Shown: positions 16,354-44,662, counted from the stretch's first letter. The stretch is 64,000 nucleotides of DNA from Neophaeotheca triangularis (GCA_054600435.1 BAAIJX010000002.1:310001-374000); one strand, 5' to 3'. Numbers and translations are program-made. Notes: generated by a model not told the origin, from the letters alone.

Positions 16354-17013
16354 TAGACGATTAAGTATAGTAGTATTTTGATCCGCATTTAACTACGCGG
16401 GTTATTTCGGTAGTAGTTATTACTTCGATTACTAAGTTACTATATAGTAGCTACTCTTATTATTAAAAGAACTATCGGAAGAACTATCGTTAGTAATAAT
16501 AATAGGGTCGTGTAACGGACCTTACCTAATAACCTCTTCTACTACTAAGTCGTCTTATTAAACGAATAGCGTTAAAGATTCTTCTTAATCGTCTACTAGG
16601 GACGTCTAGAAAACCCTTTATCCGCGTCCCCTACGTCTAGTACGTTAGCCGTGTTAGGACAGTAATAGCCACGTCTTATCGAGGGGCTTCGTATCCCGCT
16701 ATATTTATATATGTCCTACTACTTCTATTCGAGTCTCGTAAAATATGAGTACGTCGCTTCGCTTCCTACTTATCATATCTTAGGGTTTTACTCGTCATAT
16801 ATAGTTACTACCTATCCTATAGCCTACTATAGCTCCTCTCTAGTTAGAGTCCAAACCTAATACTATACTAGGCTATAGTATAGTCTATGATCCGGGTTAT
16901 GATTTGGGTCACGATTCGGGTCATGATTCGGTTTATGATTCGGGTCCTGATTCGGTTTATGATTTAGGCACTAGTTAGGGCTTTTAAGTAGTAATTATTC
17001 TCTATTAGGAAAT

Positions 17014-18033
17014 AATGGGTAGCCTTAGTATACTTATATAGCATTACGCTCTACTATTCGTAGTTTAGTCCTACTACTTATAACCTTATAAACAAACACT
17101 ATTTAACCTATACACTTCTAATACTTAAAGGATCGAGTAAAGTAGTAAGGTTTACCTTTACCTATAAGCTATATAGACTAGTGCCTAATTAGCGACAAGT
17201 CCTTACTATAGCCGTTAATATACCTACTACTACCTTTATATACTAAAGCTAATATATACCTCGTCCCTTAAGGGCCCTATCGCTCTTCGATAGGTTCATC
17301 TTATGATCTACTAACCTTCGACATAGAGACGTAATATAGTTAGTTCATGTAATAAGACCTAGCTAAAGTAGCTCTCTAAAGGGATTACTAGCGCTTTATA
17401 GAAGAAGAGAGAAGGCCTACTACATAGTGGCATCGCACTATACTATAAGAGTTATTTAAGGAAGAGCTATAAGAGGTAGTTCTATGTATATAACCGTACG
17501 AAAGGCTATAGCCGCTAGAATAGACACCTAATCTAATAATAGTAGAGCCTCTAGTTATAGTACCCATAACTAGACATACTATATACTCCTACTATAACGA
17601 CGAGGCTTTTACATTATCTTAATGGTAGCTAAAGAACATGTCGCCTATTATAAAGCCGAAATATTCCCTTACCTAGGTCACGACCTACAATACTACTATT
17701 ATATTTACCTAGACATACGAGTTCGACGACGATGTACTAGAGGTATCGGAGATGATTTACGACGCCCTTCTTATAGTAGAGGAGCATGTAAAGTATACTA
17801 GGAAGGCTTACTAGGAGGTCGCTCGTGATGCTATTATGTTAGTATCTTCTATACGACACTTAGGCCTCTATAAGTAGCTAGATTTCAAGAACAGCTCTTA
17901 CTAGTCTAAGAACATCTACCCTTTAGCTAACCGTTATAGTTAGAGAGACCCTAACTATGTAGTTACTATAGAGGTTATATAGGCCTTTTCAAATTATGAG
18001 GATAGTGTTATACCTAATACCCCCTAGTACTAA
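17014..18033 (+). pseudogene. RIP-mutated hypothetical gene
   Basis: One frame from ~17281 reads as ~250 codons of protein-like sequence broken only by TAA/TAG. No domain recognised; 5' end uncertain. Confidence 0.45.
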
Positions 18034-18060
18034 TACTATCCCTAACGCTAATACACTCTC

Positions 18061-21000
18061 TTAGCCTATTCTTTTCCGCTTCGCTAGACGTGTCCTACTA
18101 TTCCCCTTTTATATCTCTATCTCGCTAGGTCTAGACTACCTTAATCTTCGCTCTTTTACATTATAGGTATCCTATACCTCCTTCACTTCCTAGTTAGTAT
18201 TCTATAGTATGTTGTATGTCTTGAAGTCAGCTATATTATTAATGTACATATCCCTACCCCTAACCTTATTCTCATCGACTAGTACTATGTGTATACTATA
18301 GTATATACTAGTTAGCCCATATATCTAACGGCCTCTTAGTTTACTAGCCTATAGGGAACTCGGTACTAGTATAATTAATGTCATGCTATAGGTGTCGTTA
18401 GCGAGACCTCTTAGATCCTTTAGTTAGTATAGATTAACGAAAGTACCTGTATATATAGGACGGTCTTTCATACTACTATCGAATAGTTACTACCCTTATT
18501 ATGTTATTAGAACATCTTTAACTAATAGTACTAGGTATAGCTATACTAGTAGCCTACTATTAAACGCGATGTCATCTTCCGCTCGTTCCAATATATTAGT
18601 AGTATACTCTTATACCTATAACTAGTCGTACCTTGTATTCCTAATCGTCCCTTACTAGTTAGGATTATAGCGTATAACATCTAGTTCCTCTACATTAGGG
18701 TTTATTAGGTTACTACCGCTTCTTTTCTAATACTATAAGGAAGCATAAAATTTTACCTAGAGATCTAGTACCTATTAGTCTACTACGATGAGACGATCTA
18801 GATCCGCTTCCTACTTATATGTATTCACCGGATCGTTCACTAGATCATTCGCCGGATCATTTACTAGATTATGGACCGGATCATGGACTAGATCATAGAC
18901 TAGATCGGTACTCGAGTCGTTAACTAGATCGGTACTCGAATCATTAACCGGATTAGGATACGAATCGTTTACTAAACTAGTTACCAATTCGTATCCTGGT
19001 CTAGTTACCGGTTCGCTCGTCATTCTAGCGACATCTATATAAGTAGATGTTCTTTATTCATGTATGAATACTATAATTACCTTATATAGGTAAGTGCCTA
19101 TTAGTTTACCTATTAGGCCTTACACTTTATGTATAGTCCTCTACCTATTCTAAGCTCTTACCCCCTTCGATTAAGTAGGCTATCTAAAGAACCTATAGAC
19201 TTCTACTAACTCTATTAGCTGTACTAGCTAGCTAGTGTCCTTAGCGAGCTCCGTAGTACTCCTAGCTCTTCCTATTAGGCTAAGATCGAACTACGCTTAT
19301 AGATAGAATAATCTAGTTATGTATTCGAATATTTGAGTCTTCTAGCTAGAGCACTTATTCGTGATCTTAAACAAGTCTTTAATGAAATCAATGTGCTTAT
19401 ACTCGAAATGGCTACTGTTAAGGTCTAGGGCATTCCTATATATTCGAATCATATCTAGGTAATACACTATAATATGCTATTTAGGGAAATTAAAGTGACC
19501 TTTACTAGTGTCGACTCCCTACTATATAGTAATGTAGTACTTCCTAAATACTTCCTTAAACTAGTTTATTCGAAATAGTACTAGGGTTATGAAACCTAGA
19601 GTGTCCTTATCGTGGCTCTAGTACATCGCTAGTAATACGAAGTCTATTACCGCCTATAAGAAACGTACTATATCGTGTTCTCCTACTTCTAATAGTAATG
19701 GGGTTAGTACTAGTAGTAGCTATTAGAGGATACTCTTATTCTCTTTCCCTATCTACTACTTTATAGATGAAAGGTAGCGGAATACCTTTAATCCTAGGTA
19801 AGGAGGCACTACTATAAAACATTTGTCTACTACTTTGGTTATCTTTGTTTTAGAAATAGGACCTGTTTTCTTATAGTAGCCTTAATATGCATTTAGGGCA
19901 CGTTGTTATGTCGTCTCTTAGGGTATAGCATTCTTAGACATCTTGTCTTCTAATAGAGTTATGGCCTATTATAATATATGTATTATAACCCCTTTTAAGA
20001 GTTAGTAGAGGATATCGACTATCATGGTTTTATAGATGTTAATGTGCTTATGTCCGAAAGCGAAACAGTCGATGTTATGTACCTATAAGTCATCTTCCTT
20101 TTTAATTGCCCCTATTCATTATTATTAGTACTGTTCTTAGCTCTAGGCATATAAGCGCTATAGCATAGTGGCTTCGAGGTCTTCTCTATTACCCGGTTCG
20201 ATTATGTATATTATATAATGCTAGTTAGCTTTAACCCCTATGATTTTGACTTGTTCTTTGTAGTCGATAGCTATTATAGCTAATATCAGGAAACATTGTC
20301 TAGTCTAACTATCTACGTACTCTACTTTAAAGCTACTATCGTTAACGTAGTCTCTTATAGGGTTAAATAGTATCTAGAGACATTCATAGAATAGTCTCGT
20401 TCGGTCCTCTAGATTATCTTCCTTAACTATTAGTAGTATTACTAACAATATACTCCCTACTCGCTTATTCATATTCTATATACTAGTATCGAGGTTACTA
20501 ATTATGAGGTATACTACATAGGTAGCTAGGTCGCCTAAGTGATTCATAACTTAAGTCTTATCGCTTACTACTATTAATAGTACTACCGTTACTCTATCTA
20601 TGTTGATTCTACGTTACATGTTCTACTACTAATCTCTAGATGCTATATCAGTATATATTCGTTTAGGTAGTTGTCCTATTATAAATATGTGGTAGGGCTT
20701 ATAGGTTAGCTCTATATCGAATCCTTTATAGCCTATAAAGAAGTGTATACTGTCTAGGACGTTCCTATGTCAGAGTGTATACTTCGTCTTTCTTATATCG
20801 CTTTAAGGGGAGTCTACTTCTACTTCTCTTATAAACTAGTTAGAGGCTTTAGTTACCGGCTTAGTGCCTATAGTCCTTATATGTGCCTTAAGCTTATCGC
20901 TTATCTTCTAACTAAGTAGATCTCGAAGGGAGCCTACATTTAGGTTACTAAGTAGGCACATAATCGCCCTCCCTAATATATTTTCCTCTATTATCTAATG

Positions 21001-22080
21001 TATGAAACTTAGATCGAACGCGCTCTTAAATACTCTATAAGCACTATCTTTATCTGTAATATTGTCCTCCTTATAAGGGCTCGATCCCCTTAACTAGGAT
21101 TTCGCTACTAGATTAGGTCTCGAATTAGGTCCTGAATTAGGTCCTAGATTAGGTCTCGAATTAGGTCTCGATTTAGGTCCTAGATTAGTGACTAGTATCG
21201 GTTCGGTTTTGTTCCTTAACGATACTAGTTATTATGTCTAATACTATATTATAGTAACATCTTACTTACCTATATAAACGTTGTCTAGCTTTCTACCTAG
21301 TTTGAACAGAATACTACTTATGTTTATAACTACTAGCATTTATCGAGGACGAAAGGCGCCTATTACTAATTAGTATAGAACTAGTACTTAGGTTTAGACC
21401 GTTACTATCGTCTTGTTTAACATCCCCCTCTTCGTTTAGTAACACTAGTTGTTCTACTTAGTCCTCTATATACATAGTAGACTCTATTTCCGATTCGTCT
21501 ATTACCCTATATATATCATCGAATATACCTAATGCGTCTATCTTATAGGTATGTAATATAGTCTTTATAGAGGTAGAATAGTCTTTCTAGGTTTTACTCT
21601 CTACTAAAGGAAGGGTAGCGTTCGAACGAGATTCGTTTATGATTGCTATATCTACCTTAGGGCTAGAGTTATAGGGCTATATACTTAGTATATAACTGTT
21701 ATTGTTCATATAATGGTCCCTATCAATCGAAAATGTAGGGTCTATAGCGCCGGCTTCATTAACTACCTCGAGTTAGTATCCCCCTTATTCGTTATGTGTT
21801 AATGCTAGTTATATACTCGAGTAGTAAAACTTACCTTCAACTTCGTTATTATAGCCCCTTTAGTCTTCGAGTTCTCTTAGGTATAGTATGTCTATATAGG
21901 ACGATACTAGTTCGCGCTATCGTATATAGCCCTATATATATTGTTTTAGGCCTTCCCTCCTTTTAAAGTTCGACTTACTACATAAAGAGTAAGCTCCTAA
22001 TGTTATTATCTTTAGTGTTCGGTATAGGTATGCTCGGTATAGTAGAATCTATTCATAGTAGTGTAGATTTACTATGTATC
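18061..22080 (-). pseudogene. Plavaka-family transposase, RIP-inactivated, with N-terminal C2H2 finger and introns
   Basis: Motifs in the expected order: VVSDKT[Q]...GDLA.YVVYL.I[G]NL (~20560), [C]VD[G].TRQCF, AIDYKEQ..I.GVKA..H[C]..[C] (~20260), VDIL[H][Q]LLKGV (~20000), HFNFPK[W]H...[H]Y.D.IR.Y[G] (~19480), HFE[H]KHIDFIK..FK.TNK (~19400), R[C]NPN[W]...R.D[W]..V and YINN.ADF..YN.L near the C-terminus. Confidence 0.88.
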
Positions 22081-22299
22081 TGTCCTTAACTATACTAGAT
22101 ATGCCTATGTATTTACGGGGAAGTCGTCACTACTAAACTAGTTATATAGATCCCGAACCGGATCCTGAATTAGTTCCTAGTTCAGGTCTTAAATGACTAG
22201 TTTAGGAATAACACCTATGTTTCGGGAATAACACTATTAGTTCATCAACCTAACTTATAGTATAAGTTTCCCTCTTCAATATCGTATTTCTTATGTTAT

Positions 22300-25200
22300 T
22301 ATTATATATATCGATTAGGTTACTACCCTTTATATTCGAGTACCTCCTAGACTATATACTAGTCTAGTAACTAGTTCGTTTATATTTCATGAACTAGGAC
22401 ACCTTTTAACCTTATAGTACACTTAATTCGTAGATATCGAACGGTTTAATGATTATGCCTCTATCTCTTTACTAGATATATATATCGATTAGGTTATATA
22501 TCTTTATATTCGAGCACCTCCTAGACTTTATACTAGTCTAGGAACTAGTTCGTTTATATTTCATGAACTAGGATACCTTTTAACATTATAGTACACTTAA
22601 TTTATAGATATCGAATAGTTTAATGATTATACCTCTATCTCTTTACTAGCTAATAATGCTGTCTATAGTCTACGTAATAGGTAGCTACTACTCTACCGTA
22701 GCCCCTAACCCGCCTTATGTATCCGTTATAGTAGTATCCTCGTTTCCCTTATCTATATCCCTCTATACCCTCATTTTAAGCGCTATAGCTTCGATACCTT
22801 TATAGATGTCTACTATGTTCATATAGCATTTCGCTAAGTCGACACTAAGGCTATAGTAAGACGAGTACGAGATAAGGTGATAACTTTCAGTATGCTTTAC
22901 TATTTGTACTGCCTTATTATACCTAACTCGACTAGTTAACTAGGTATCCGCTTCTAGTAACCATAACCTATCGAGTAATACGATAACATTAGCTAGTAGT
23001 AAGGACACTCCCATGTTAATCTTCAAGACTACTATAGCTATAATATAGGGACTATCTTCGTATCCTTCCGCTTTATTCTATGTAGTCTAGAACGCAATGA
23101 TCTTCGACCGGTTATTAGCGCTACCTAACCACGATTCGATAAGGGTAATGTTCTCGAGGTTACAAATGTAGGGGTAATCCCTCTTAGCTAACTAGTAGAG
23201 GTATACATATATAATCGCTATGTTTAGCGGTTTATGTGCTACGAAAACGATCTTCTTTAGGTAATTGAGCTCGTTCTTCTAGTTTCATATACTAGTTATT
23301 AACATCTTAATGTAGTATATAGTATTAGTTATGTTGAGTTCCTCTATGTACTTCTATAATATACTATTCTTTCTAGTATTAATAATCCTTTTTGTAGTGC
23401 TATTGTCCTATAAACCTATCTCTTTAGCTAATTCCGTATCATCCTAGGCTAACTAGTAGAGGGCTAGGTATATAGTAAAGACATGAAAGTAGTTAATGTA
23501 ACTAAAGAAGCTTTCCTCTAGTAAGGATTCCTCCTAGTGTGCCTTTAGTCTACTAGTATACTTCTCGTCTATAGGAACCATTATGTCGAATGTAGTATAT
23601 AGTAGAATGTTAATAGTAGGCATCCCCCTCTTAGTAGGATTAGGTTACTACTAAAGGTTAGGTTCGAATTTAATTATTTATAGCTCGATCTATTTAGTAA
23701 ATTCGGCAATTATATTGTTATATGCTGCCTTTACTATAGCGTCATCTACTCTAGCTAGCCCTTTCGCGAATATTAGCTAGATAGTATGTTTGTCGATAAC
23801 CTTAGTAATTAGGTCTATATCCTAGTAGCTAAGTTAGTTAATAACTTCAATTTGTTCCTTATTTAGACCTTTAACTATATAGGTATAGATACTAGTAGAG
23901 AAATCAGACGCTTTATACTTAAGGTTATTAGGTACGTTCGTTAGGTTAAAAGGGGCGAAGTTCTTTACCATACTGTTAAAGTACTTCGTAAATATAGTGA
24001 TAGAGATAGTCGCTATGTTCGTAGTATGTGTGAATAGAGTTACGCTAAGTACTAGTATAGGTAGGTCGCCTCTTATGTTTCCTACTATCGAGAATAGATA
24101 GGACTTAAATGCCCTAGTAGTATAGAACTCATCGACTAGTACGATCGACTACACTATATCGATAGGCTTTTTATTAGTCGCTTTAGTGTAAATAACATTA
24201 CCGATGTTAGACTAGTTTATTAATACCTACTAGTTACGATTCTACGAGTAGGCCTTATCCCCTTAGGTATAAAGTAAGTAGTCTTATACTAGTATACTAC
24301 CTTCTCTCTTATATGTCTACATTTATTCTTCTTCGAATACCTCTATAAGTTCGTCGTATAGGGCTAGTATACTCTTTAGGACCTACTACATGTAGTGGAC
24401 ATATCCTATATACTTTAGTATTATAGAACCCGTGTTTTCGAAGTTAGACTTTTTATATATAGCTTTATAGGTAATAACGATATAGGGTAGGCTACTCTTT
24501 TCGATAAACTTGAACTACTCACTAGCCTATTAGTTAAGCATGTTAATAGGGGTAATGATAAGGGCTAGGCCCCTCTTTATCTTTACTATAGTATTAGTAA
24601 GGCGAGTCAGCATCCTTTAGTTAAATACTCTAGGGTCGTATATCTCTAACTTAGGTATAGGTATGTATTTTAGGAAGCCGTCCCCTATAGATAGGCCTAG
24701 TATATCGTTATAGGGTTCCTCTTCGTTATACTATACCCTTCGTAAAATCTCTATAATAGCGAGGCTCGTTAGTGTTTTACTAAGGCCTATAGCTATTAAG
24801 TTAATGACGAGATTATGTCCTATAGTAATCTGTTTCATAAGAAATGTAGTAGCGAAAAACTAGTATGCTTTCAATATATACTGTTTATTCTAGCCTAGCT
24901 AATAGACTATACTCCTAGAGTTATATTTATTAGGATTAAAGCCGAAAAATTAGTAGGTATATCTCTAAGCTTTAGGCGAAAAGTGAGATGACTAAATGTA
25001 CTTACTAATGACATCATCATCCTTATCTATGACTTCGACTACATACGCGTTAGAGTTATTATTATTCCTACCTAGTATATTATTATCGATAGGAACTCAA
25101 GCCTTAAGTTCTATAGATGTACTTAATAGCTAGTCTACTAGATTGTATTCGAATTCGCCTTTGAAATCGATAGATAGTTCGTTATAACGCTTCGCTTTCT

Positions 25201-25816
25201 ACATTATAGTAGTAGCTAGGTCAATTCTAATTATGTAAGGAAAGTCTTTCGATAGCTCTTTAGTAGAAGTAATAGTAGACATCTAGGGAATAGCCTTAAC
25301 TAGAGTACTAGTAGGACTAGATGACTAAGTGCCTCCTAATTCAGCCGCGTCTTATTACTTCATCGCATTTTCCTAGTTTATAAGTTCGAGCTCCTAAATC
25401 ATGAACTCATTTTCCTAGATCATGAACTGTTCGACCTAGTTTGCGAACTCATTCTCCTAGATTATGAACTATTCGACCTAGTTCATGAACTCATTTTCCT
25501 AGATCGTGAACTGTTCGACCTAGTTCGCGAACTTACTTTACTAGATCGCGAAGGTAGTATCTATAGTATCTATGTCACTTTCTTAGCTCTCGACCTTATT
25601 CATGTAGTTATCGAGGTTCTTCTAAACATTCTTAAGGTCCTAATCCTATGTCTCGAGCTCTACTAACTTCTTGTTTAACTCTTCCTCCTATATAGCGAGA
25701 GTTTTAGAAGTAGCTAGCTCTATACTAGCTATACTAGTAGGTAGGACATCGTCTAACGACGATTTCGATATCGTTTTAGTATTAGCTTCTATATTCCTCG
25801 ATAGGACTATAAACAT
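22300..25816 (-). pseudogene. SNF2-family (SF2) ATPase/helicase with N-terminal heptad-repeat coiled coil, RIP-inactivated
   Basis: LKAY[Q]F (Q motif), [M]GL[G]KTLTSLA (~24785), [W]SIVLVDEF[H] (~24130), LVLS[A]T[P]F, and C-terminal NMGVSL..ANVIVLLD..W..EADT[Q]..[G]RV. 21-bp repeats at 25390-25550 encode QENEF/NQVEQF heptads. Confidence 0.85.
22302..22649. repeat. 174-bp tandem duplication (2 copies), possibly an in-frame 58-aa repeat at the SNF2 C-terminus
   Basis: TCGATTAGGTT at 22311 and 22485; copies differ mostly by transitions. Confidence 0.85.
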
Positions 25817-25869
25817 AGTTAGTAATAGGAAGAGGTAGTATATATATATAGTTAATATCGACTTATATT

Positions 25870-26908
25870 AGAGTCTAGTAGGTAGTAGATATAGTAGTAG
25901 TAGTACTATAGTAATGAAAACATCTATACTCCTATCCGAGTCGGAGTAGCTTATATTAGCATGTTTCTATAATAAGGCAATCGAGGCTTTTAGGGTAGGG
26001 CTACTAGCTATAATCTAAGGCATACTTTTACCTAGCTTGAAAGTGTAGATAGTCTCGCTAGTTATGTAGTACTCGGTAGTAAAGGCCTTAAAGTTAATGT
26101 AGTTATTAGCGCTAAGTAAGTCCTTATAGAGTACATCTTGATAATTTAAGGTAATAGAATCCCTACTATTAGAAACAATAGTAACGAAAACGGAGATGTC
26201 GTTAAGGGGTAGCTTAGTAGGAGCTAGCGTTTAGTCGATATCTATAGGCTCTACCCCCTACCCTATAGAAATGCCTTCAAACTATCTATATAAATTCGAA
26301 ACTACCGAAACCTAAGAAGTATTAGACCTACTACATAGGCGGGACGGCATGTTACTACTACTAGAGGTAATACTCGTGTTTCTTGACCTCTATATGTCTT
26401 CCTTTTTCGCCTCTATGTTATCCCTATACCTTATATAAGCCTATGAATATGCTATTAAAGCCTATCTAATAGTAGTATAGTTAAAACCTGCTTCGTACCT
26501 TTCTTCGTCTAGACTAGGTAGAGAGTAGTAGTGTCTCTCTATATCCTTATACTACTAAGTAGGCGCTTTAGTACTATTCCTTACCTAGATAGGCTTAAGT
26601 GAAGAAGCGATTATAGAGGTATATAGTTTATTCTCGATATAACGCCTTATCTTATAACCCTTAGTATCTATATAGGGAAGTCGTATACTACAGCTTTAGA
26701 ATTATTTAGCTATAGTATTACTAATGTAATTATATATCTAATTTACGTGATTTTAGTCCTAACCCTAAACTGCCTTCACGAAGGTACTAACATTATTAGG
26801 AAGAGAACCTAAGTAGGATATGACTTAGCCTTAGGTCTACTTAGATAAGGTCGATCCTATATAGGTATGTTTTTGCCTAGTAGGTAGAGTAAGAGGTTAT
26901 GACGTCAT
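25870..26908 (-). pseudogene. RIP-mutated hypothetical gene
   Basis: Single frame of ~345 codons from ATG ~26908 interrupted only by TAA/TAG. Confidence 0.5.
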
Positions 26909-27248
26909 CTTTCCTAGAAAGACATTACTATAAGGTAGGTTTCCTAGTGAAGAAAGAAGGTTGTAGTATATAGCTAAAGTAGGCATGTGAAACTAATAGA
27001 TAGTGGTAGGAGTAGTGTTAGTAGTAGTGTAATGAAGAAGGTGTATTTAGTAGAGGTAGTAGGTTATAAAAGAAGCGTGTATTGTTTATAGGTGTTATTT
27101 ATAGTATAGAATATGAATATACGGCTATAAGGGGTAACATAGTATGTGCTAACTAACTTAGTAAAGTACTAAGCTAGTAGGAATAGAAGGCGTAGTAATA
27201 AAGAGTATAAAGGGCGATGACACTAAACCGGTAAACAATCTAGTAACC

Positions 27249-27427
27249 GAACTAGGAACCGATTTAGGGACTAATTTAGGATCCGATTTAGATGTACGGT
27301 ATAGGTAAGTGAAACCTTCGAGAGTAGTAGATATAACAAACTAGGAACTAATTCAGGTACTAATTCAGGATCCGATTCAGATGTAGAGTATAGATAAGTA
27401 AATCCTTCGAGAGTAGTAGATATAATA
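27249..27427. repeat. 89-bp tandem duplication containing 12-bp motif units
   Basis: ACTAGGAAC...CCTTCGAGAGTAGTAGATATAA starting at 27251 and 27340. Confidence 0.8.
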
Positions 27428-27471
27428 AGAGAGGGTAATTAGACAGGTAACTAGTAACTTACATCCTACTA

Positions 27472-30501: not shown

Positions 30502-30585
30502 CTATCCCCCTTTCAGTCTAGCTTCGTCCTCGAAGCCTAATAAAGTTCTGTTATTCCCTACATCGTTTTATCATCAAGTTTCGCG

Positions 30586-31185
30586 ATGTCTTCTACCCTA
30601 TCCTATAAATAGTAACGTCTCAATCTTTTAGCCGAAATCAAGAAGTCTAGAACAACTAACATAGTACCCTATTCAGCCTACTAATCTACGAGGAAATCGC
30701 CTTCGGCCGAACTAGTACGATGTGTAATTAGTGCTCGATCTAGTCGGTGTTCGGAATGTATACATAAAGGGTATACTAAGTGCGATATAAAGCTTAGTCG
30801 TCCTAAGTAGGAAAAATGGAGAGATTCACATAACAAACTATAACGGCAGTTAGAGGAGTATAAGGAGGAGGAGCTCGAGCTTTTGTAAAAACTATATAAG
30901 CGTTATTCAAAAAAGTTGTAGTTATAGAAACAGCTTCATTATGCTAAGGGTTATATAGAAACCGTAGTATCTAGAGAGTTAGAGGATTTAGAGTAAGTAG
31001 ATCGGTTAGAGGAAGATCTCTTAGGTCCGGTTAACACTAGGGTTAAGGTTATGTAGCGTCTAGGCTTTATTAGCATTCTAGAGATGTCGACATAGGACTA
31101 AAGTACTATCGACGGCTTGGATCTTCCTTCTAAGTTTTAGGATTTCGGTCCTAATAATATTGTTATAAGGCCTTCCGGTAGTTAA
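30586..31185 (+). pseudogene. Antisense accessory ORF of the retrotransposon: Zn2Cys6-like cluster plus coiled coil
   Basis: 200-codon frame: P[C]SA[C]...RCVI...S.RCSEC..KG.TKCD, followed by a Glu/Lys/Leu-rich helical stretch. Confidence 0.7.
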
Positions 31186-31189
31186 GTAG

Positions 31190-34100
31190 GTTATCCTTAG
31201 GTTCCTAAGTGTTTTCGCTTATATAGTAACCTTTCTATTTTACGAGGTAGTTCTAACCGTCCTTATCTAGAATCTTTTCGACCTCATACTCGGCTTCTTC
31301 CTCTAGTAGATTATAGTGAAAGGTGTCTTAGATTAGTGTTTCGGGGTCTACTAGTTCGAGTAAGGATATATAGAAGACTAGGTAGATTCTGGCATCTTTT
31401 AGGAGTTAGAGGAGGTAGTTGACTTTTCCTCTTTATTCTTTAACTAGAAACGGTCTAACTTTGATATCGTCTAGTTTTCGTGTTCGTCTCCTTATCTTTA
31501 GGTTTTTCGTGAGTAGGTATACCTTATCCCCCTTCTTAAGCTAAGGCGCCGTTTTGGAGTCCTTATGTCTTTATGACTCGAGTCGCTACTATAACTATGT
31601 GATTTTTTCTTTCGCCTATTTGTATGCTTCCTATAGCTACGAAGACGTTTGTAGGGCCTTTTCTATAAGTAGTCCTAGTTTTAGTTCTATAAACATATTT
31701 AGATCTTTTCCGAAATTTGTATAGAACGGAGTTATGCCTATCGTTTCTAAGGTATTGTTATTAAGTGCGAGTTGTGCTATAAGTAAGAGTACTACCTAAT
31801 TGTCCTAAGCGTAATTAACGTAATATCGTAAGTACGTTTCGAGGGATTAGTTTGAGCATTCTATTTGTCTATCGGTTTCTAGGTGAAATGCTGTTAATAG
31901 CTTGTGTTTCACTCCGATTGCTGAAATCAAGGTCTTCTAGTAGTTAGATGTAAAGAGCTTATCTCTATCCGTAATTAGAACTGTAGGAATACCGTAGTAT
32001 CGTACTAATCTGTCGAGAATAAGGTATCTAAGTTCTTCTATAGTAATTATCTCATTATAGGGAACGAAATGTGAATACTTTGTGAGTCTGTCGACCATAA
32101 CTAGAATTGAATTATAGTCCTTACTTGTTAATAGGTCCTTAGATCTTAGTAACTTAACGATAAAATCTATTATGACCTCGTTCTATAGTAGATCCGGTAG
32201 CTCCTAGAATTGTAGGTTTCCATATTTAGCATATCTCGAAGCTTTATTTTGTTAGCAGCTCGTACACTTCTTGACGTACTCTAAGACCTTCTATCTCATT
32301 CCGGGGAACACGAAGTTACGTCTAATGTGTTCTACTATTCTAGCGATTCCTAGATGTCCGTTAGTAGGTCTATTGTAGTGGTCCTAGATGTACTAGCGTT
32401 CCTTTTCATTTAGAACCCTAAACTTCCTATGTTCGATAGGGAATTCCTTAGTGTCATCCTATAGTACTCGTAGTACTAAGTTAAATTCCTAAGGGTTAGC
32501 ACTTAGGCTTCCGTCCTTATTAACTTTTAGTATACGGTGTTACTATAGAAGGTGTCCTTCTATATAGTCGCTTCTTCTACTTAGCGCGTCGGCACGCCTA
32601 TTGTCTTTTCTAGGAGTGTAGACTATATCGAACTTATATTGTCCGAGTAGCTCTAACTATCTACATTGTTAGCATGATAGTTCCTTAGTAGTTGTGAAAT
32701 ATTGTAGGTTCTTATAATCCGAATAAATAGTTAGTCCGGTTACTCCTTCACAGTACACTCTCTAGTATCGCAATGCTATAACAATTACGAGCAGTTCTTT
32801 ATCGTAGATCTCGTAGTTCTATTCTACTAGTGACATCTTCCTTAAGAAGTAAGCAATAGGGTGTCGTTTGCTTTTAACCTCCTATATAAGGTAAGCTCCT
32901 ATTACTCTATTAGATGCATCGGTTTCGATTTAGATAGGTCTCTTAGGGTTAAACATCCTAAGTATAGGGGTAGTCGTGTATAACTCCTTAAGCTTATCGA
33001 AGGATTGTTGTTAAATTTTTCCCTATACGAATGGTGTGTCCTTCTTTATAAGGTTAGTTAGAGGTATAGCGAGCCTTGAATAATCCTACATAAATTTCCG
33101 ATTGTAGTTAGCTAATCCGAGGAATACTTAAATGTCCTTAACTAACTTAGGTGTCAGCTATTCCTCGATCGATTAAGTTTTCTTTAGGTTTATTTAGATC
33201 CTAGTAGTACTAATCATAAAACCTAGAAAGTCGACTTCCTTCTTATAGAACTCGCATTTCTCTAGTACTATTCTAAAGTCTACTTTGTCGAGTCGTTCGA
33301 ATACTGCGTATACATCCTTAGTATACTATTCTCGTGATCCTTTTATGAAGACTAGTATGTCGTCGATGTAGGCAATAATAGTGATATCAAGTAGGTCTCG
33401 TAGGATGTCATTAACGAGTTACTAATAGGTTACTAGGGCATTTGTAAGTCCTATAGGTATAACCTGGAATTCGTAAAGTCCGTAGCGTGTTCAAAAAGCT
33501 GTTTTCTACTCTTCCCCCCTTACTATTCTAACTAAATAGAATACATCTTAGAGATCGATTTTAGTAAACTAGTATGAACCGGTAAGTCGATCTCTCATCT
33601 CGTCGATGTTAGGCAGTAGATAACGGTTTTTGGTAGTAATCGCATTAAGTCGTCTAAAATCGATAACTATTCGTAATTTTCCTCCTTTCTTCAGAACGAA
33701 AAACGGTGGTGAAGCGGCTAATAAAGTAGAGGGTCGAATCCATCCTTTCTTCATTTTTTCATCTAGTTATCGTCGTTACTCTTCGAGCTCTTTTTCGGAT
33801 AGCGCGTAAAGTAGCCCCTATAGTATTTTCGCACTAGGCTGAATGTCGATTTAGTAGTCCTATAGTTAATGTCTAGGTAGAGTAGCTACTCCTTCCTCTT
33901 CCTAGAAAAGGCGCTTCTATTTTCTGAATTCTCTAGGGATATCTAAAGGTACATGACTTCCTTCCTTAACTCTTACTTATTAGTCTGTTTAGGCTAGTTC
34001 GGTACCTATAGAGTCCGATCTAATTCATATTAGTATTATGGTCGATTGGCGATATGTTTCGTTAATCTGCCTTTTCTCATCTACCGTCGATCGCTGCTAC

Positions 34101-36770
34101 CGTATAGAGTAGGTTGTAGTAACGTAACTATACCTATCGAATGTGAGTACTCGTTTTCTCTAATCCACTATAGGATTATGTCGTTCTAACTAAGGAGTGC
34201 CTAGAACGATGTCATATCTAGCTATAGGCATAACGTCTAGGACAATTCGCTCGTGATACTTTTAGAAGACAAGTAGTAGCGGTACTGTTTCGCTATCCAT
34301 ATCGGGTAGTAATAAGCCGTCTATAGCTATTAGTTCGTACCCGCTATCTGTTTTCTTCTAGGTAGCTAGCCTATGCTAACATACGAACGTTTCTAAGATA
34401 AAGTTTCCGCTAGCTCTAGAATCTATTATAGTAAAGGTTTCGTATCTATCGATAGTACATATTTTTCGGAAGACCGTCCCTAATACTATTTCGTGTTGAG
34501 TATTTATATTGTTTAGTTCCTAACGCTCGCTCTTAGCGACAGGTCCTATTCGTTTTTTGAGAAGTAGGTAGATAAATCCGCTGTTTCGAGAGAGACTTCC
34601 TAGTAAAGGGGTCTATCCTAAGGTCTAATCGTGACTTTTCCTTAGATTGCATATATAGTAATAAGTCCTCATATAGTTGCTTTAATATGTCCGAGAATCA
34701 TCTTTCGGTCGACTAGTAGTAGAAATTTTTCATGTAGTACTATCGTCTATTAGTCCAAGGAATCCTGTACTTATTTCTTCATTTCTTGAAGCGTGATTTC
34801 TTCTTCTTTCTACTACTCCTAGATAAGCTAGAATTCTCTATAACGATTCTTGACTGTCTTAACTCGTTGTCTTATTATGTATAGGATTCGTATCCTATCT
34901 AGTATAATGTAGCCGTTTTCTCTATAGAAAGTGCTTCCTATTAGTAGCCTATCCTAGATAAAGGTAGTAGCGTTATACTCGACAGCGACCTTTTAGTAGT
35001 CCTAGAACATTACTCGTAATCGTATAAGTATAGCTTCGAATTAATTAGGTTCTAAGCGTCATTTGCCTTAGATTACTAGGAACACTTCTTTATATAACCG
35101 TATAATGTAGATAACCATTTCCTTGATTAGGCCTAGTCCGTACACAATAAACTCTACTATGTCGTTATCATCTAGTTCGTTATCGTTAGTATAGTCATAT
35201 TCAGAGTCGTCTTCGGAGTCTATTACTGTCGTGTCTTCTTATGATTCTAGAATTTCTAGAGGCATCGATAGTCTTAAGGGGCTAATCTCTAGTATTAGTA
35301 TAATCGTAGTAAGTTCTAGTATCTAAGATATTTCTTCGTTATCTAAGTCAGGTGTTAGTAGTGCTATTATTAGTAATAGTGCTTGGTTTTCTTATAGTTT
35401 GTCGTCCTCCTATATAAATAGAGGTAGGGACCTTCCTTAGGCTACGTTGCTATCGTCCCTTAACTACTATAGTGGTTAGCGTCTTAACATTATGTTAAGT
35501 TCCTTCTAAGGCTTACGTAGTTACTTAGATTCTTCGTCTATTGTGGCCTTAATCCTGTCATTAAGATCTGCTATCTGATTAGCTACTTAGATCATGAGGT
35601 TGAAGTATTCTTTAGTCTACTCCTTATAACTAACTAAGTTATCATGAAACTCCCTAAGCTTCTAGTATTACTCGATTAGCGCGTCCGTTCCGGACTTTAG
35701 GGTAACTCATTTAATAACGTTTACTTCCTTCTAAGGTCTAATAGGTATTCTATTAGTTACTAGTCCCTAACTTTTGTGCACTAAATAGTAATCCCTCTTA
35801 TAAAACCTCTAGTAAAGTTCGTCGTAGTCTAGTTCTTCGTAGGTTCTAGTAATGTCGTAAGCTCCGCGGCTCTTATCGATAGGAGAGTCGTTATCCTATT
35901 AGGTCAAAATCGTATTGACCTCCTGTCGTGGGCGTATCTATTTCCCGTAGTAGTCTCATATATAGTACCCTATCTTATAGTAGTTATAGCATTCCGGTCC
36001 GTTCCATTTCTTGCCTAGGGCGTTCTGTTTACCCTATCCTCTATCCCTACCCTTCCTAGGACGCTATTACGTAGAGTCGAGTTCTATCGTATTAGGATCG
36101 CGATGTTACTAACCGATAGGCTAGCTACCGGTAGTATAGCTAGTTCGTCCGCGAAATTGTCTAGTGTAGCGTTTTTCCATAAACCGTTCATAGAGTATGT
36201 CGTCAACTTCGATCGCCGATTTAATCATTCTAGGGAGAGTTAACTAATCGCCTCCGTAGCGCATGAGTTCGTCCTTCACGTTGTCCTTAAGTCCTCGGTA
36301 GTATATAGTTATGAGAGCGTTATCATCCTAGTTAGTCTTAGCTAAGTACTCCTAAAACTTAGCAGTATACTAAGAGGTAGATGTTTTCTACGTAAGGTAC
36401 TGAACTATTTAGATAGTAACTTGTCGATTATTACTTAATCTATAGACATTACGGATAACCTTAATAAAAGACTTCTAGTTCGAGAACAGTCCTTTAGGGT
36501 TAATTCGTTCTATAAGGAAATCTATAAGCTTAGGGCGGATCTAGTGTTAAGCTTCTCCTCGAAGGAAAGAAGTAGTAGTAAGAGGTTGCTTCTACTTACT
36601 AACGCTTTCCATGAGAAAGAATATCATTATCTAGTTAACCTAGTTGTCTAGCTTATTACATTCGCTATAGAAGTAGTCTAGTTTGGTAACCTTACTAGTT
36701 ATTATAGTCGATACTCCTCGTTAAGTACTGGCGACGCTTACGTCTCGGTTATTAGATAAGGACATACTTA
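31190..36770 (-). pseudogene. gag-pol: CCHC knuckle, aspartic protease, reverse transcriptase, RNase H, integrase, chromodomain
   Basis: ECYN[C].K.G[H]...D[C] (~35970), IDS[G]ASGNFI (~34415), GWIRPS...SPPFFV.KKGGKLRIVIDFRRLN, AYIDDILV (~33360), ETDAS (~32920), YEVEKILD...YLVK.KGY..SENT.EP chromodomain (~31250). Confidence 0.93.
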
Positions 36771-36805
36771 CCTATTAATCTCTCTTTCCTAGAGGGTATT
36801 CAAAG

Positions 36806-37223
36806 TGTTATAATCCTATAAGGTAGTCTTATAGGTAGAGCTTATAGTAGAAGAGGAGAGATATCGTAGAAGGCTAGTAAGGGTGTTCCTTTATCGTAAG
36901 GATTTCAAAGATATATGAAGTGTCGCTATAGACCTTTTAGTAAGATTGTAACATGAGTTAAACACAAATCTCTACCTAGGAAATATCGCTAGCTATATAT
37001 ATAGGAGATTTATGCTAGATTAGTTCTTAACTGATCTATCGTGCTTAGGATTAGACTAATCCTAAGTGTCCTAGCTTAGACTTAGTCTAAGTCTAAGCGA
37101 GCATGCTTAGTTAAAGTCTAAGCGAACATCTTAGCTAGTTCTAAGATCACGTGTCTAGTAAGCTTCAGGGTTAGACCCTAGCTTAGACTAGGGATTCTAG
37201 CTCTACTTAGCTTAGCCGTAATA
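36806..37223 (-). repeat. 5' LTR
   Basis: Direct repeat of 30084-30501; the differences inspected are C/T or G/A transitions. Confidence 0.95.
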
Positions 37224-38199
37224 GGAGGCTTAGAGGTTAGCCTTCTCATATACTCTTCGTAGTAATTACGACATTCCCGAACTCGCTACCTATACTCTAA
37301 CTATGTCCTATAGACGCTACTATCATGACATGGACATTCTTATAGGCTAGTAGGAGTTAACGAAAGCCCGATCTAGGATATTATTACCTGAACTAGTTAC
37401 TAGTTCGGTTACCGGTTTATAGAGCTCCCTTATCTCGTTAATAAAAGCCCGATCCATAATACTCTTACCCGAACTAGTTACTAGTTCAGTCCCTAGTTCG
37501 TAAAGCTCCCTCATCTCGTCGATAAGGGAGGGTATAAGGCTAGAAACGAAACTATACCTCGAACTATATTATTAGGTAGCATTATAGCTATCTACCTATT
37601 ACACCCCTAATTATATGTATATGAAGCTAGCGGATGTCGCGATATATGTCTTCGACTTCTCTACGATATTAGTTAGCTATTATCTCTAACATCGCTAACT
37701 ACATCCTTAACCCTCGAAGTTTATGTATAGATAGTTAGTCCTTAGGTTATTCGATAATAATGAAGCTATCTAAACTAGGAAGGGTAGGGCCTATGTCGAG
37801 GGCAGGGCGAAATGTAGATCGTTCTAGTTACTCTAGACGATATAGAGGCTAGGGTAGTGGTCGTAGTAGTAGTAATCATAGTGGTAGTGATCGTAGTAGT
37901 AGTAATCGTAGTAGTAGTAGTAATAAGGGTAGAATTGAAGATCATTATAGTTATATTAGAGGCGACGAAGGGGGTAGAGACTCTATAGAGGACCTATCGT
38001 TGAAATGAACTAGTAAAGACTCTAGAACCTCCTTAGGTAAGTGTACTACCCCCTAGCGATCGCTTACTAGCGATTACTACGAATTAGGTCTAACCCTAGG
38101 TGCTTTAGACATAATAAATACTATTACTATTAGGATGTATTAAAGCTCGGGTTTCTCGGAATACTACATGTAAAGTATAGGTGTTTAATAAAGGTATAA

Positions 38200-40440
38200 A
38201 AGAGAGTATAAGGCGAAAGGTTAGATAAAGCGTAAGGTATCGTCAGATCGTAAAAAGAAGAGAAATTAACTAATGTATTTCGTATAATCCTAGTACTTTA
38301 TAGATAATGAACGTGTGATAAAGGGTAATCGACTGATAGCGTTTATTAGCATATGTATTCTGTAGTAAGATACGGGTCTTGATAAAACAAACTTATAACT
38401 AACCTAATCTACGTACTCCTAAACACGGCTACTAAGAGAGTTAGTAGTATGTCTACTAGAGTAGGGAGGGGAGACTATTAAACTTTAATTAATAGGTAGC
38501 TGCGCTCCTTTTTAAAATCGAACTTATAGGAACGCACCTAAAAACTAACGACTACTAGTGTCCTATGTTAACAGAACGACATCAAGACGGAAGCGCATAT
38601 AGATGCCTATAGTAAATTAACTATGCCTTAAAGAAGGTCTACCCTACCCCGTAACGAGTCTAATAGTGATAGCGAATATGAGTAAGATACTATATATAAG
38701 GGTAAAGGATTATATAGTATGTAGAAGAAGGGAAGGGACGAGAGAGACGAGTGAGTCTATTACCTTATACTACAGCTCAGTATGCTACTTTAACAACTAT
38801 AGTTCTAAAACCCCTCTACCTTTGAAAAGATAAAAGGGTTAATTGCTATAAAAGGACTCTAGTAGATAATTAAGTAATAGGAACTAACACTACGACGATA
38901 TATCGCTTAGGATAGGGAAGTATAATGCCGATTAGGTTGAACTAATAGGATAACGGACGATGTATAAGTGAACGAAGTAGCTTTTAAATACTAGAGCAGT
39001 AGTAGGAGCGGCCTTATATAACACTATATTCCTAACCGAATCATAGGATAGATAGGTATATGCTTAGGCTAACATTACTTGGTCTAATATCTAATAAGAG
39101 CTCTCCCCTAAAGAGAGAGAAACTATACCCTATTAACTAGCTATAGCTAGGCTGTAGAAGGTTAGCTTATCTACTCTTATTCATGCCATATTGCTAATAG
39201 AACTAGATAAGGGAGTCTGTTCGACATTACTATAATAACATTATGCGAAGAATTCGAGAGGATTTGACGAACATTATTAGGAAACATGTCTCTACTAAAG
39301 ATGCCCGCGAATAGGCGATAGAGTGTCTATATAATAACATCTTCAAATGTAAGAACGACGTGCCTATAAGTATATATACCTAGGGTACTACTTAATCCGT
39401 CTTAGGTCTAATAATACCCTTTAGGGTAGGTAAAACATTATCTAGGGAAAATAGTACTAGATAGTCTTTAGACATCGCTCTTTAGGCATAACTTGATAGG
39501 GATATAGCTATACACGAAGCACTTGTTTACTAATATAAGCGCTTTCTTACTTATTAGTATAGTGACTACTATTTATTACGTTCTATTAGCTATTAAGAAC
39601 ATATAGCTAGAGAACCTAAAAGCGATAAGACTAAACATATTCGAGGTTACTTAAATATTTGAGGGGAAGATAAAGCTATAGATAGCGTAGAGCGTAGAAC
39701 GATAGGGGAGAATACTCGAGATCATGAGTACATCCTTATACGACATAGTAGTATAGGAACTAGTGGGCTATAACCTTAGCCTCGAGACAATATAAGCAAT
39801 ATTTAACGAGAGTCTAGAAGGGCTTGAATCTACTAATAAAGAAGACATACCTAATAACATAGTAAGCTCGACACTACTATATAAGATAGGGTCGCGATAA
39901 AGTAATGTGGCTACACTTACCTATAAGTTCCTATATATAGCCTAATAGTAAGATAAATCGCTAATCGAGTAGATAGAGCTATAACCCTAAGGGGATGAAT
40001 ACTTCCTAACATCGCTACTACATGTTAGTAAAGTCTCCTAAGTCTCCCTATTCGTGTCCTAGACTAGGAGGTCGAATCACTAGACTAGTACAAAATGTCT
40101 AATTCGAACCGAAACACGAACCGAAACATGAACCGGGTCCTAGATTAGGAATTAGATAGCCCGATCTAGGACATAAACTAGGAGGTCATATTATAGGACT
40201 AGTATACGGTGTCTAACTCGAACTAAGATACGAACTAGGTCCTAGATCGTGAATTAGACAGCCTAATCTAGGACATAAACTAGGAGGTCACATTATAGGA
40301 CTAGTACATAGTGTCTAACTCGAACCGAAACACGAACTATGTCCTAGATTAGGAAGTAGACAGCCTAGTCTAGGACATGAACTAGGAAACGGTAGATTAC
40401 CTAATTCCTAATTCAAGCCTTATACCTAACCCTAGATGAT
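38200..40440 (+). pseudogene. RIP-mutated intron-containing gene, possibly DUF6532-like, with 102/114-bp C-terminal repeats
   Basis: Exon-like frames separated by GTGAGT/GTTAGC/GTAAGA...AG introns. Helical segment SLFRH...LF..ISAFLL..IVTTIYYVL. Repeats anchored at ACTAGGAGG 40063, 40177 and 40279, plus a partial copy at 40381. Confidence 0.45.
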
Positions 40441-40459
40441 TACTAAGCCTAGACTTCAG

Positions 40460-42121
40460 CTCATAGTATGTAGCGAACACTTAGTAGACAGACTCTACTA
40501 TAAAAGGAACGACTACTTTCTAAGGTTATTAGGATTTCTCTAAGCATAATCTAGGGATATAGATATCGATAGAAATGCGATTAAATAACGCTATAGGCCT
40601 AGAAGAAGGGGGATATCTATAGCATTATGTAGTAAAGGATAGGAAGGGAATAAACGAGAGGAAGGAAGCTACTTTTAACGAGGATTCGCTATAGTCGATT
40701 AAGAACTCTTAGGCTAAAGGCGGTGTAGTAAAGGGTAGGAAACTAAGGGTATACTAGGTAGATATAGATGATAAACTATCTGAAGAGTAAATACTATACT
40801 GTACATTCGGATCTGATTTTAGTAATGCTTAGGAATAATGTATTACCTCTCTATAAGTAGCGTAGGCCTTATATAAGCGGAATAATGATAAATCCACGAA
40901 ATGAAAAGGTAGTTTCGAAGTCGAACACCCTATAAACCGGAAATTTCACTAGTTCACGAACTAGTACCTAACTCGTGAACTGATTCGGGTTCTAGTTTAG
41001 TAACTAGTTCACGAGGAATTACTAACTTATATTAAGAGGAGTAAGGGAAAAATATTAGGTACTAATAAGTTCGAAGAGTTCCTAGAAGTATCTACGCTAT
41101 TAGGGTTTTCTAGACAGATATGAAGTCATTAGGTATTAGCTCTACTTCGACTATAGCGGATCGAGGCTTACTAGCCGTCCTAGTATCGACTTCCTTACTA
41201 TCCGAGAAAGACCTATTAATAGAAGACTCGTTATTAGCCGTTATAAAGGTACTGTCTTTAGAGCTATCCTCTTTAATAGACCCTCGCCCCATAAAATCGT
41301 CGCTATCTCGCTTAGGGATCGAACTAGCTCGCTTAATCGTAAGAGTCTAGTCTATCGTATTAGTACTATCGCTAGCGTCGCTACGTATATATACTTCTCT
41401 TAGTATAGCTACTATATTAAGGCGTAGTGCCTTATGTAGAGGGCTTACCTAGCGAGCCGGTAGGCTATAGTTAGCCTTAAGTAGTACCTTTACAAGTAGA
41501 TTTGCTACTACTGCTAGCTAGAGGTCGAGTATACAGGTATCGCTTAAAACTATTATAGGAGGAGTAGGAAGTAATAGCTTTCTAAGTAGTACTATGTCGT
41601 CGTTATCGTTAGTAGACGTTATCGATATATTTGTATACTCTATAAAATCAGGATCTAATAACATCTTATCGTCGCTATAATCGCCGTTATCTATACTAGG
41701 CGAAGTAGTAAAGACCGAGCCGAATAGTAGTAGCTTCCGTAGAGGGCTTATCTAGCGAGCCGGCGGGTTAGGAATAGTAGACGACTATAAGAAAGATACC
41801 GTAGCCGCTATTATCGCTCGTTTCCTTAGATCTTATAATAGATTGTATACACTTATTTCTTCTAAGTTCGTACCTAGCGAGTCCTAAGCCTAAGCCCAAG
41901 CTACTTATTCGAGCTCTCTATACTTCTTCTCTTTTTAGATTACCTAAGAGATAGCTAACCATTTGCCGTTTTCCTTAGGAAAGGGGGGGTTATAGGGGTA
42001 GATCTAGAGAGGGATCTACCGCCTAGTAACTAGGTCTTTACTTAAGCCCTATATAGAACCGAATAGATTAACTCTAGGAGGCGCTTACCTATAGGGCAAC
42101 TTAAATAGTAGTCGGCGACAT
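40460..42121 (-). pseudogene. RIP-mutated hypothetical gene with Pro/Ser-rich N-terminus
   Basis: Single frame of ~550 codons from ATG 42121 with only TAA/TAG internal stops. Includes the 41110-41292 ORF fragment and an in-frame 12-bp repeat cluster at 40935-41012. Confidence 0.5.
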
Positions 42122-42259
42122 AACCCTCTATTAATCGTATACTTTTCGTCCGAGACACTTAGTAGGACTATATTAGAAGCTAAAAGCAATACTTAATAAA
42201 GAGGTACTAAGAGATAAGAAAGGGAGGGGGAAAGAGGGGGAAAAGGGGAGCTTATTAAA

Positions 42260-44643: not shown

Positions 44644-44662
44644 AAACACTACTACTACTACT

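Follow-up and report, generated by a model that had tools for sequence, protein, structure and literature searches.

A reiterated 12-bp motif around a degraded Plavaka-type transposase gene of Neophaeotheca triangularis: candidate subterminal repeats of CACTA-clade DNA transposons

We analysed a window of 64,000 nucleotides from Neophaeotheca triangularis (GCA_054600435.1 BAAIJX010000002.1:310001-374000), in which an AT-rich block carries ten clusters of 12-base units. These clusters are real and mutually related. We consider it moderately probable that they are the reiterated 12-bp subterminal-repeat motif of Plavaka-type (CACTA-clade) DNA transposons that were inactivated by repeat-induced point mutation (RIP). 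Joined head to tail in short arrays of either orientation, the units lie around and within a Plavaka transposase gene and are met again in two zones nearby. Intact relatives within Plavaka bear reiterated motifs that are mirrored across the transposase, and on this ground the arrays read as subterminal cis motifs. The finding is sound and modest in surprise; its one unusual feature is an array inside the transposase open reading frame (ORF) that mirrors an array downstream of it.

In the living element, the units would have served as cis sites for the transposase or an accessory protein, by analogy with the protein TNPA and the En/Spm element. Protein bound to the units would bring the element ends together, as TNPA does at En/Spm subterminal motifs, and the CpG at the centre of each unit could make binding sensitive to methylation. 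The subterminal motifs would have expanded into short tandem arrays, one such expansion being tolerated in a linker of the transposase. Subterminal motif arrays are the cis half of recognition and movement of CACTA-clade transposons; they are hardly described for Plavaka in the text consulted, and the main text of PMC12730594 does not mention them. The locus and its closest intact relative, metagenome contig L001, supply concrete candidate binding motifs, and the arrays offer a simple marker for non-autonomous family members in RIP-degraded fungal repeats, where protein searches fail.

Period-12 arrays and their common motif

Tandem Repeats Finder (TRF) reported period-12 arrays at 16886-16964 (6.6 copies), 18831-18906 (6.3), 21112-21179 (5.7), 27241-27291 (4.2), 27343-27370 (2.3), 29734-29777 (3.7, with 100% matches) and 40105-40135 (2.6). 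A sliding lag test (lag 12, 36-nt window, at least 72% match) retrieved five segments in 12401-30082 (16881-16968, 18854-18910, 21104-21196, 27230-27292 and 29720-29789) and no period-12 segment in the long terminal repeat (LTR) retrotransposon nested in the block. The single lag-12 segment in 37105-47800 is a GTA microsatellite, and the five found in the host flanks all coincide with microsatellites of period 3-6 recognized by TRF. When periods 5-25 were tried on 12401-30082, segments other than those at 12 were obtained only at 21 (a separate repeat at 25.4 kb) and at 24 (2x12); a period of 12 thus characterizes this DNA specifically. Ten 12-bp clusters had been proposed in an earlier interpretation made from the sequence alone (below, the sequence-only reading). 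Five of them are solid tandem arrays (16884-16975, 18822-19015, 21108-21208, 27223-27294 and 29721-29779). The other five (22134-22205, 28171-28243, 37388-37500, 40100-40350 and 40935-41012) are short or weak, being made of 3-4 units or of scattered copies within larger 81-, 102- and 174-bp tandem duplications, though the motif is common to them. The features are as follows, with the strand where one is assigned:

16884-16975: array A, about 7.6 units, unit near GATTCGGGTCAT; TRF and lag test
18130-21084, minus strand: Plavaka transposase pseudogene, with RIP stops throughout, in one frame and collinear with intact homologues
18822-19015, minus strand: array B/B2, about 16 units, in frame in the transposase and free of stops, with DPVN/DLVN read-out; TRF and lag test
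21108-21208: array C, about 7 units (CYRRATTAGGTC), final unit GATTAGTGAC; TRF and lag test
22134-22205: cluster H, about 4 C-type units preceded by CACTACTAAACTAGTT; C matrix p 0.0013, alignment score 70.5
22303-22649: 174-bp tandem duplication with single motif copies at 22344-22356 and 22518-22533; TRF, repeat search and D-matrix matches
27221-27427: arrays D and D2, about 6 and 3 units in an 89-bp tandem duplication; the outermost unit starts CACTAAACCGGT
28171-28243: cluster G, about 4 units, the last two ending TTTAGTGAC; D matrix p 0.0003
29721-29779: array E, 3.7 perfect units (TCCTAGTTCGGT), mirror of D, followed by a run of G; TRF 100% matches
30083-37221, minus strand: nested LTR retrotransposon, LTRs at 30083-30499 and 36805-37221, 93.5% alike over 417 nt
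37356-37517: clusters I and I2, an 81-bp sequence in two tandem copies, about 3 motif units in each; D and E matrices p 0.0025 for I2
40044-40418: cluster F, three 102-bp tandem copies, each starting with 12-bp units (CGAACCGAAACA); mirror of A
40935-41012: cluster J, a degenerate motif-like run; C matrix p 0.0085, D-matrix matches at 40953-40992

Position weight matrices, two units long, were built from one array at a time. Such single-array matrices score the other arrays above nearly all of the ca. 70,000 background positions of the block. As a stricter null we used 4000 random 12-mers taken from the same RIPed DNA and made tandem. Against this null, D was linked to E (p<0.00025) and to G, and A to B and to F (0.0003 each), followed by C-H and C-D2 (0.0013), D-I2 (0.0025) and C-J (0.0085); the D matrix reached p<=0.05 in 10 of the 12 other arrays. 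Plain consensus comparison linked C, H, D2, D and E, with 10-11 of 12 positions matching (0.44% of the null match at 10 or more), and did not place A, B, G and F; because of RIP, this comparison understated the likeness. A reconstructed "ancestral" consensus was noisy, and conclusions were drawn from the matrix tests instead. Two looser unit subtypes can be recognized, one near GWTYCGGKNNRT (A, B and F) and the other near CCGRWYYAGGWW (C, H, D, G, E and I).

When the whole window was scanned with a RIP-tolerant D matrix, the top 0.1% of positions fell into 25 loci, which include all ten clusters and both halves of the 174-bp repeat. Outside the clusters, there were no loci in the LTR element, in 12.4-16.6 kb or in 41.1-47.8 kb, one in 22.8-27.2 kb and two in the 28.6 kb of host flank. 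RIP-tolerant matrices made from A, B and E were unspecific or GC-biased, with 22 of 39, 35 of 48 and 24 of 47 top loci, respectively, in GC-rich host DNA.

The short core fared differently from the periodic motif. The 7-nt core GAWCYRG occurs 2.26 and 1.96 times per kb in element DNA vs 1.85 in the RIPed LTR element, and CTAG has a density of 13-15 per kb across all RIPed DNA. The sequence-only reading had named equal frequency in unrelated repeats as the observation that would undo its proposal, and this is what is found for the short core, which is not a specific marker; the periodic motif escapes by virtue of the matrix tests, and the proposal of a motif common to the clusters is retained. 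After RIP, 7-mers containing CTAG are thus worthless as family markers, and a period-aware RIP-tolerant matrix still works. The description of the units as quasi-palindromic did not survive testing: in a comparison of 13 arrays with 3000 random tandem 12-mers, self-complementarity of the units was not significant (p 0.06-0.44), and what remains are the palindromic tetramers CCGG, CTAG or GATC inside units.

The block that houses the arrays extends from ca. 12.8 to 47.5 kb and has a GC content of 34-39%, with flanks of 52-61% GC around it and almost no ORFs of at least 90 codons within it. The observed/expected ratio of CpA is 0.36 in the block vs 1.03 in the host flanks, and that of TpA is 1.61 vs 0.65. 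Aligned internal repeat pairs of the block differ by 107 transitions and 20 transversions; the still-variable transitions lie in the contexts CpG (50), CpA (35), CpT (16) and CpC (6), and there are 21 CG<->TA double differences between the pairs. The block bears the marks of RIP, and the view of CTAG as a mutated CCGG is sound, given the ratio of transitions to transversions and the double differences. By its composition, the window looks like DNA of a RIP-active ascomycete. In 12800-47500, residual RIP-type differences at CpG outnumber those at CpA; either RIP of this fungus also hits CpG, or deamination of methyl-C adds to it.

One could suppose that mutation has simply driven unrelated sequences to the same TA-rich words (CTAG, TTAG) and so created a false common motif. 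The equal frequency of the 7-nt core and of CTAG in the unrelated LTR element would agree with this, as would the poor specificity of the A, B and E matrices. We nevertheless find this scarcely credible: the RIPed LTR element (7.1 kb) and the regions 12.4-16.6 and 41.1-47.8 kb are without period-12 arrays and D-matrix loci, and the tandem 12-mer nulls came from the same RIPed DNA, so that the lag test, this null and the D-matrix scan together largely refute it. The nested LTR element here acts as an internal RIPed control that stands outside the motif system and has no arrays.

Self-BLAST revealed no homology between the flanks of different arrays; therefore, the clusters are not copies of one larger segment. 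Related units occur in both orientations, at one coding position and in gene-free places, which upholds the suggestion that constraint or common origin lies at the DNA level.

The Plavaka pseudogene and the coding status of the arrays

The gene entered by array B is, as judged from its sequence, a Plavaka transposase gene killed by RIP. It matches Pfam family PF18759 with an E value of 7.8e-30 (104.6 bits vs a cut-off of 26.3, profile positions 29-321 of 325). A first protein search with the RIPed query returned one relative only; the best intact homologue, P0001 (858 aa), shows 41% identity with an E value of 1.2e-164. In blastp comparisons with P0001-P0004, two collinear segments in the same frame were obtained, from about 21069 to 19045/19051 and from about 18810/18798 to 18130. 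Since residue 6 of P0004 aligns to nucleotide 21069, the start codon is predicted near 21084. Array C lies 24-124 nt upstream of this predicted start and shows no sign of coding. It had been assigned to a transposase intron; the homologues align in one continuous frame from ca. 21069 to 18130, and with a start near 21084, array C becomes part of the upstream leader, and an intron is not needed.

Array B occupies the interval between the two blastp segments. It is in the same frame and free of stops, whereas the other two minus-strand frames hold 11 and 12 stops, which bears out the statement that its DPVN/DLVN units are read in frame in the transposase. At this site, the window has ca. 78 aa vs 8-24 aa in the four closest homologues. 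Among 151 Plavaka family representatives, none has a period-4 peptide repeat (one trivial EG run was seen), and a word search with the array B region alone found no such repeat in 124 word-sharing candidates at E<=0.001. Being absent from homologues, in frame and stop-free, array B thus amounts to a private expansion within a variable linker. It leaves the frame intact, 12 being a multiple of 3, and the protein family does not need it.

Pfam searches covered both strands of 12901-17402, 21201-25702, 25701-30082 and 37801-41402 and the minus strand of 17401-21302; the Plavaka domain was the only family they detected, and nothing was found on either strand of the first four regions. Other arrays had been said to lie in frame in further genes, with the peptide read-outs QEPN and RTET. 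This part of the sequence-only reading is not borne out: 25701-30082 and 37801-41402 lack Pfam families, the arrays D, G, E, I, F and J coincide with no detected gene, and the proposed frames contain or adjoin stops. Arrays D and D2, which are 89 nt apart, therefore cannot share a frame. An array that is open, in frame and inside a gene supported by homology was found only in the case of B.

These data also bear on the idea that the arrays encode tetrapeptide repeats (DP-x-x type) under selection at the protein level. The 12-nt period comprises whole codons, the minus-strand frame that stays open through array B is precisely that of the transposase, and several arrays, when read by eye on the minus strand, present GAY-CCG in the same codon phase. 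We regard this idea as very improbable, since conservation of such a repeat is lacking (0 of 151 family proteins and 0 of 124 candidates), array C precedes the predicted start, D and D2 have no common frame, and the arrays at D, G, E, I, F and J have stops in or beside them and no detectable gene.

The position of array B permits a further speculation. Together with its mirror A, 1.9 kb downstream, the in-ORF array could form a built-in regulator, in which the binding protein of the element, seated on its own gene, would act as a transcription roadblock in the manner of TNPA at dSpm insertions; alternatively, the pair could be an internal pseudo-end that would yield defined deletion derivatives. 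We think either role quite improbable. If true, it would amount to a self-limiting device not described for CACTA-clade elements, and it is only if the in-ORF array proves regulatory that a new kind of biology would be at hand.

Layout, copies and relatives of the element

According to the main text of PMC12730594 (Kojima 2025), Plavaka belongs to the CACTA/EnSpm-Mirage-Chapaev-Transib clade and has termini TGT..ACA or CATCA..TGATG with a 2-3 bp target-site duplication. This source covers PlavakaA/B, with Plavaka families reconstructed from Agaricomycotina; the word "subterminal" is absent from its main text, and its supplements with family sequences may show such repeats. The closest intact relative of the transposase in the window is found on metagenome contig L001, where the intact P0001 ORF occupies 2435-5008. 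The best inverted repeats of L001 all link 928-1167, upstream, to 5062-5472, downstream, i.e., zones 1.1-1.6 kb upstream and 55-460 nt downstream of the ORF. They include one perfect 17-nt pair (TCGTTCCAACCGTTGTT), and the motif GTTCCAACCGTT is present in ca. 6 copies upstream and ca. 4 copies in opposite orientation downstream. This is the classical CACTA layout, in a compact, single-ORF element with ca. 4.6 kb between the motif zones. No 12-bp tandem array is present in L001.

Mirrored reiterated motifs were found in three of six distinct Plavaka loci. In L004, an 11-mer occurs at four sites before and three sites after the transposase match, in opposite orientation, and in L005, one side bears a 12-bp array with 8.3 copies; in L003 and L006, no 11-mer is repeated four or more times. 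The 475-kb metagenome contig L007 has 35-bp tandem arrays at 3362-3441 and 15646-15736, mirrored and 12.3 kb apart around a transposase match, and is a candidate for an intact large Plavaka with tandem subterminal arrays. Matrices made from the window did not find the motif sites of L001, so the motif sequences are not common to the window and its relatives. That these motifs differ agrees with what excerpts of PMC2613891 state for plant CACTA families.

The arrays of the window occur in both orientations as well. Gapped RIP-tolerant alignments, with scores given as direct/inverted, identified the mirrored pairs A-B (49/86), C-D (36/64), H-D (24/57), D-E (16/68) and D-I (27/48), and the direct pairs C-H (70/35), D-D2 (84/22), D-G (52/38), I-I2 (66/36) and A-E (55/34); D is inverted relative to I/I2 as well as to E. 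The 92-nt ungapped alignment of A with the reverse complement of B has 57 identities, 25 transitions and 10 transversions. A and F are mirrored in the matrix test (opposite 22 vs same -5; A matrix p 0.0003), with a local alignment of 16848-16972 to 40224-40094. The window thus holds many copies of one short motif, direct and inverted, as is characteristic of CACTA-type subterminal repeats. Array A lies ca. 1.1 kb downstream of the transposase stop, and the 174-bp duplication lies 1.2-1.6 kb upstream of the transposase start. Before insertion of the LTR element, ca. 470 nt separated I/I2 from E, and the flank of E (29683 onward) resembles the 81-bp unit of I/I2 (direct score 62).

Other genomic copies were sought in sequencing run X1, which holds 85% of the sampled words of 16500-22500. 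Its contigs were placed on 12001-30500 at a likeness of at least 80%, and the results given here concern contigs among the matches listed. One contig each spans 12001-16633 (with no differences) and 22779-27549, which are stretches of single depth; the bins 16320-22489 and 27426-29893 are covered 2-3 fold, and coverage of the LTR is very high. Copies differ from one another by 664 transitions vs 19 transversions, and in one contig array B is longer by 24 nt, the length of two units, at 18873. From contig breaks and binned depth among the matches listed, we infer a repeated unit that extends from ca. 16.3/16.6 to 22.9/23.1 kb. Array A lies 250-560 nt and cluster H 580-970 nt from the edges of this multi-copy interval, with the 174-bp repeat at the same edge as H.

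Two contigs of X1 have joints with the LTR family that is nested at 30083: one connects position 19149 of the Plavaka gene to the start of an LTR element, and another leads from the opposite side of the element back to 19145. These joints therefore indicate a second copy of Plavaka, into which a member of this LTR family inserted separately, with a 5-nt overlap. Two other runs from the same organism, X2 and X3, gave one and zero contigs, respectively, on 12001-30500, including 800 nt of host flank, which is no proof of absence; the locus may be strain-specific.

The clusters had been taken to tie all genes of the block to one giant element of ca. 24 kb (ca. 17 kb without the LTR element), reaching from A to F/J and bearing the binding motif also in its interior. 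In its favour, A and F are of the same unit subtype and mirrored, and Plavaka loci with 12-14 kb between mirrored motif zones do exist (L004 and L007). We judge such an element rather improbable, because 16.6-22.9 kb is present in 2-3 copies and 22.8-27.5 kb in one, the outer flanks of A and of F/J share no similarity beyond the arrays, no gene besides the transposase can be recognized in 12.9-30.1 or 37.8-41.4 kb, and the closest intact relative is compact. The tie to one element is thus not sustained: the 27.4-29.9 kb interval is likewise present in 2-3 copies, termini were not found, and one 24-kb element fits no better than several related elements or fragments do. Three structures can be envisaged, namely a compact element of ca. 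6 kb with non-autonomous neighbours, one of ca. 11 kb from A to D, and one of 24 kb from A to F. Of these, the first agrees best with the depth and with the compactness of the relative L001. Most likely, the three zones (16.9-22.6 kb; 27.2-29.8 with 37.4-37.5 kb; and 40.0-41.0 kb) represent one autonomous element of ca. 6 kb or more and non-autonomous relatives or fragments, i.e., a transposon graveyard.

Several observations weigh against regarding the arrays as subterminal repeats. Arrays within or beside an ORF are unusual for cis sites of element ends, and those of the window are strictly tandem, whereas in the closest intact relative the motif is an unrelated one and its copies are dispersed. 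The relative orientation of the arrays that flank the transposase is ambiguous (A vs C 50/45, A vs H 44/32). The word "subterminal" derives from contig depth and not from mapped ends; run X1, which supplied the depth, is probably the source sample of the window and so is not independent; and the DNA that contains D and D2 is, at 80% likeness, present in a single copy. RIP-tolerant searches for terminal inverted repeats, between 16250-16700 and 22700-23200 and between the DNA outside A and that to the right of F and of J, gave nothing above controls made of reversed sequences. Plavaka termini (TGT..ACA or CATCA..TGATG) and a target-site duplication were not found either, in a search that short termini escape after RIP.

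Strict tandem organization is what one would expect if the arrays were neutral minisatellites, in which a slippage-prone 12-bp unit arose once in the transposon lineage and spread by unequal exchange, gap repair and local duplication, with no role in transposition. The number of units differs between copies, arrays are contained in larger 81-, 89-, 102- and 174-bp tandem duplications, array B sits in a linker that tolerates length changes, and the motif is not conserved in relatives. Array B in particular resembles in-frame coding minisatellites in keeping the frame, in its variable-length linker and in its differing unit number, and differs from them in that its unit is of the DNA motif family found in the non-coding arrays and in that the array is the mirror image of A, at a distance of 1.9 kb. 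Slippage by chance should not preserve one motif family across zones; ten clusters of one family are restricted to Plavaka-associated zones, inverted pairs occur repeatedly, and relatives have mirrored motif zones at equivalent places. We therefore consider neutral minisatellites possible but unlikely and keep to the subterminal-repeat interpretation.

Under that interpretation, the likeness to CACTA subterminal motifs drawn by the sequence-only reading is apt, the transposase (PF18759) being of the CACTA clade and relatives bearing mirrored motifs beside it. Shared with CACTA/En-Spm subterminal repeats are the 12-bp motif length, the many direct and inverted copies near a CACTA-clade transposase, the GC-rich core containing CpG, the family-private motif sequence and the mirrored repeat zones. 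The TNPA-binding motif of maize En/Spm is reportedly also 12 bp long, a finding attributed to Gierl et al. 1988. In contrast to those repeats, the copies described here are strictly tandem, with 3-16 head-to-tail units to an array, and one of the arrays lies within the transposase ORF. Neither CACTA termini nor a 3-bp duplication were found in the window, and the search for genes identified no second protein like TNPA; the host is fungal, and the copies are RIP-dead. For plant elements, excerpts of PMC8978399 describe CACTA subterminal repeat regions as several hundred nucleotides of direct and inverted repeats, with a 12-bp motif in 19-23 copies in Chenopodium Jozin, and excerpts of PMC2613891 state that TNPA binds subterminal repeats and that motifs differ between CACTA families. 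With Plavaka (PF18759), the window shares the transposase family, and metagenome relatives have mirrored reiterated motifs beside the transposase; it departs from the Plavaka elements of the main text of PMC12730594 in having no detected termini or duplications and in its host, which its composition suggests to be a RIP-active ascomycete, vs Agaricomycotina.

Nested and neighbouring repeats

The LTR retrotransposon at 30083-37221 is flanked by TAGGAG on both sides. It is Ty3/gypsy-like, as far as reverse transcriptase, integrase and chromodomain-like motifs read in translation can tell.

Within the single-copy AT-rich DNA of 22.8-27.5 kb, which has long stop-poor minus-strand frames and no Pfam family, a 21-bp tandem repeat of ca. 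6-7 copies is located at 25351-25547; its minus strand reads as a heptad-like peptide (ENEF..VEQF..). A 134-bp tandem repeat (27511-27954, 3.3 copies, 93% alike) lies between arrays D2 and G and has length variants in X1 contigs, with joints at 27842/27981 and 27944/27857. Around it, 27221-27270 is mirrored to 28240-28191 with a score of 35.5-38.5 vs a top control score of 30.5. A small element at 27221-28240 with CACTAAAC ends was considered and rejected, as reading of the sequence revealed no matching flanking duplication.

Directly after array E, at 29780-29797, there is a G tract made of nine G, one A and six G. The survival of so long a G tract is odd, as the surrounding DNA is heavily RIPed.

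To the right of the arrays, inverted repeats at 42207-42525 and 44436-44648, 80-92% alike, enclose a unit of ca. 2.4 kb, the left arm of which is a 97-bp tandem duplication. The arms contain GAACAACTAGTTAAGG, which bears a loose likeness to the GGAACAACGGTTGGAAC motif of L001, the intact Plavaka relative, and the unit (42207-44648) may be another small non-autonomous element.

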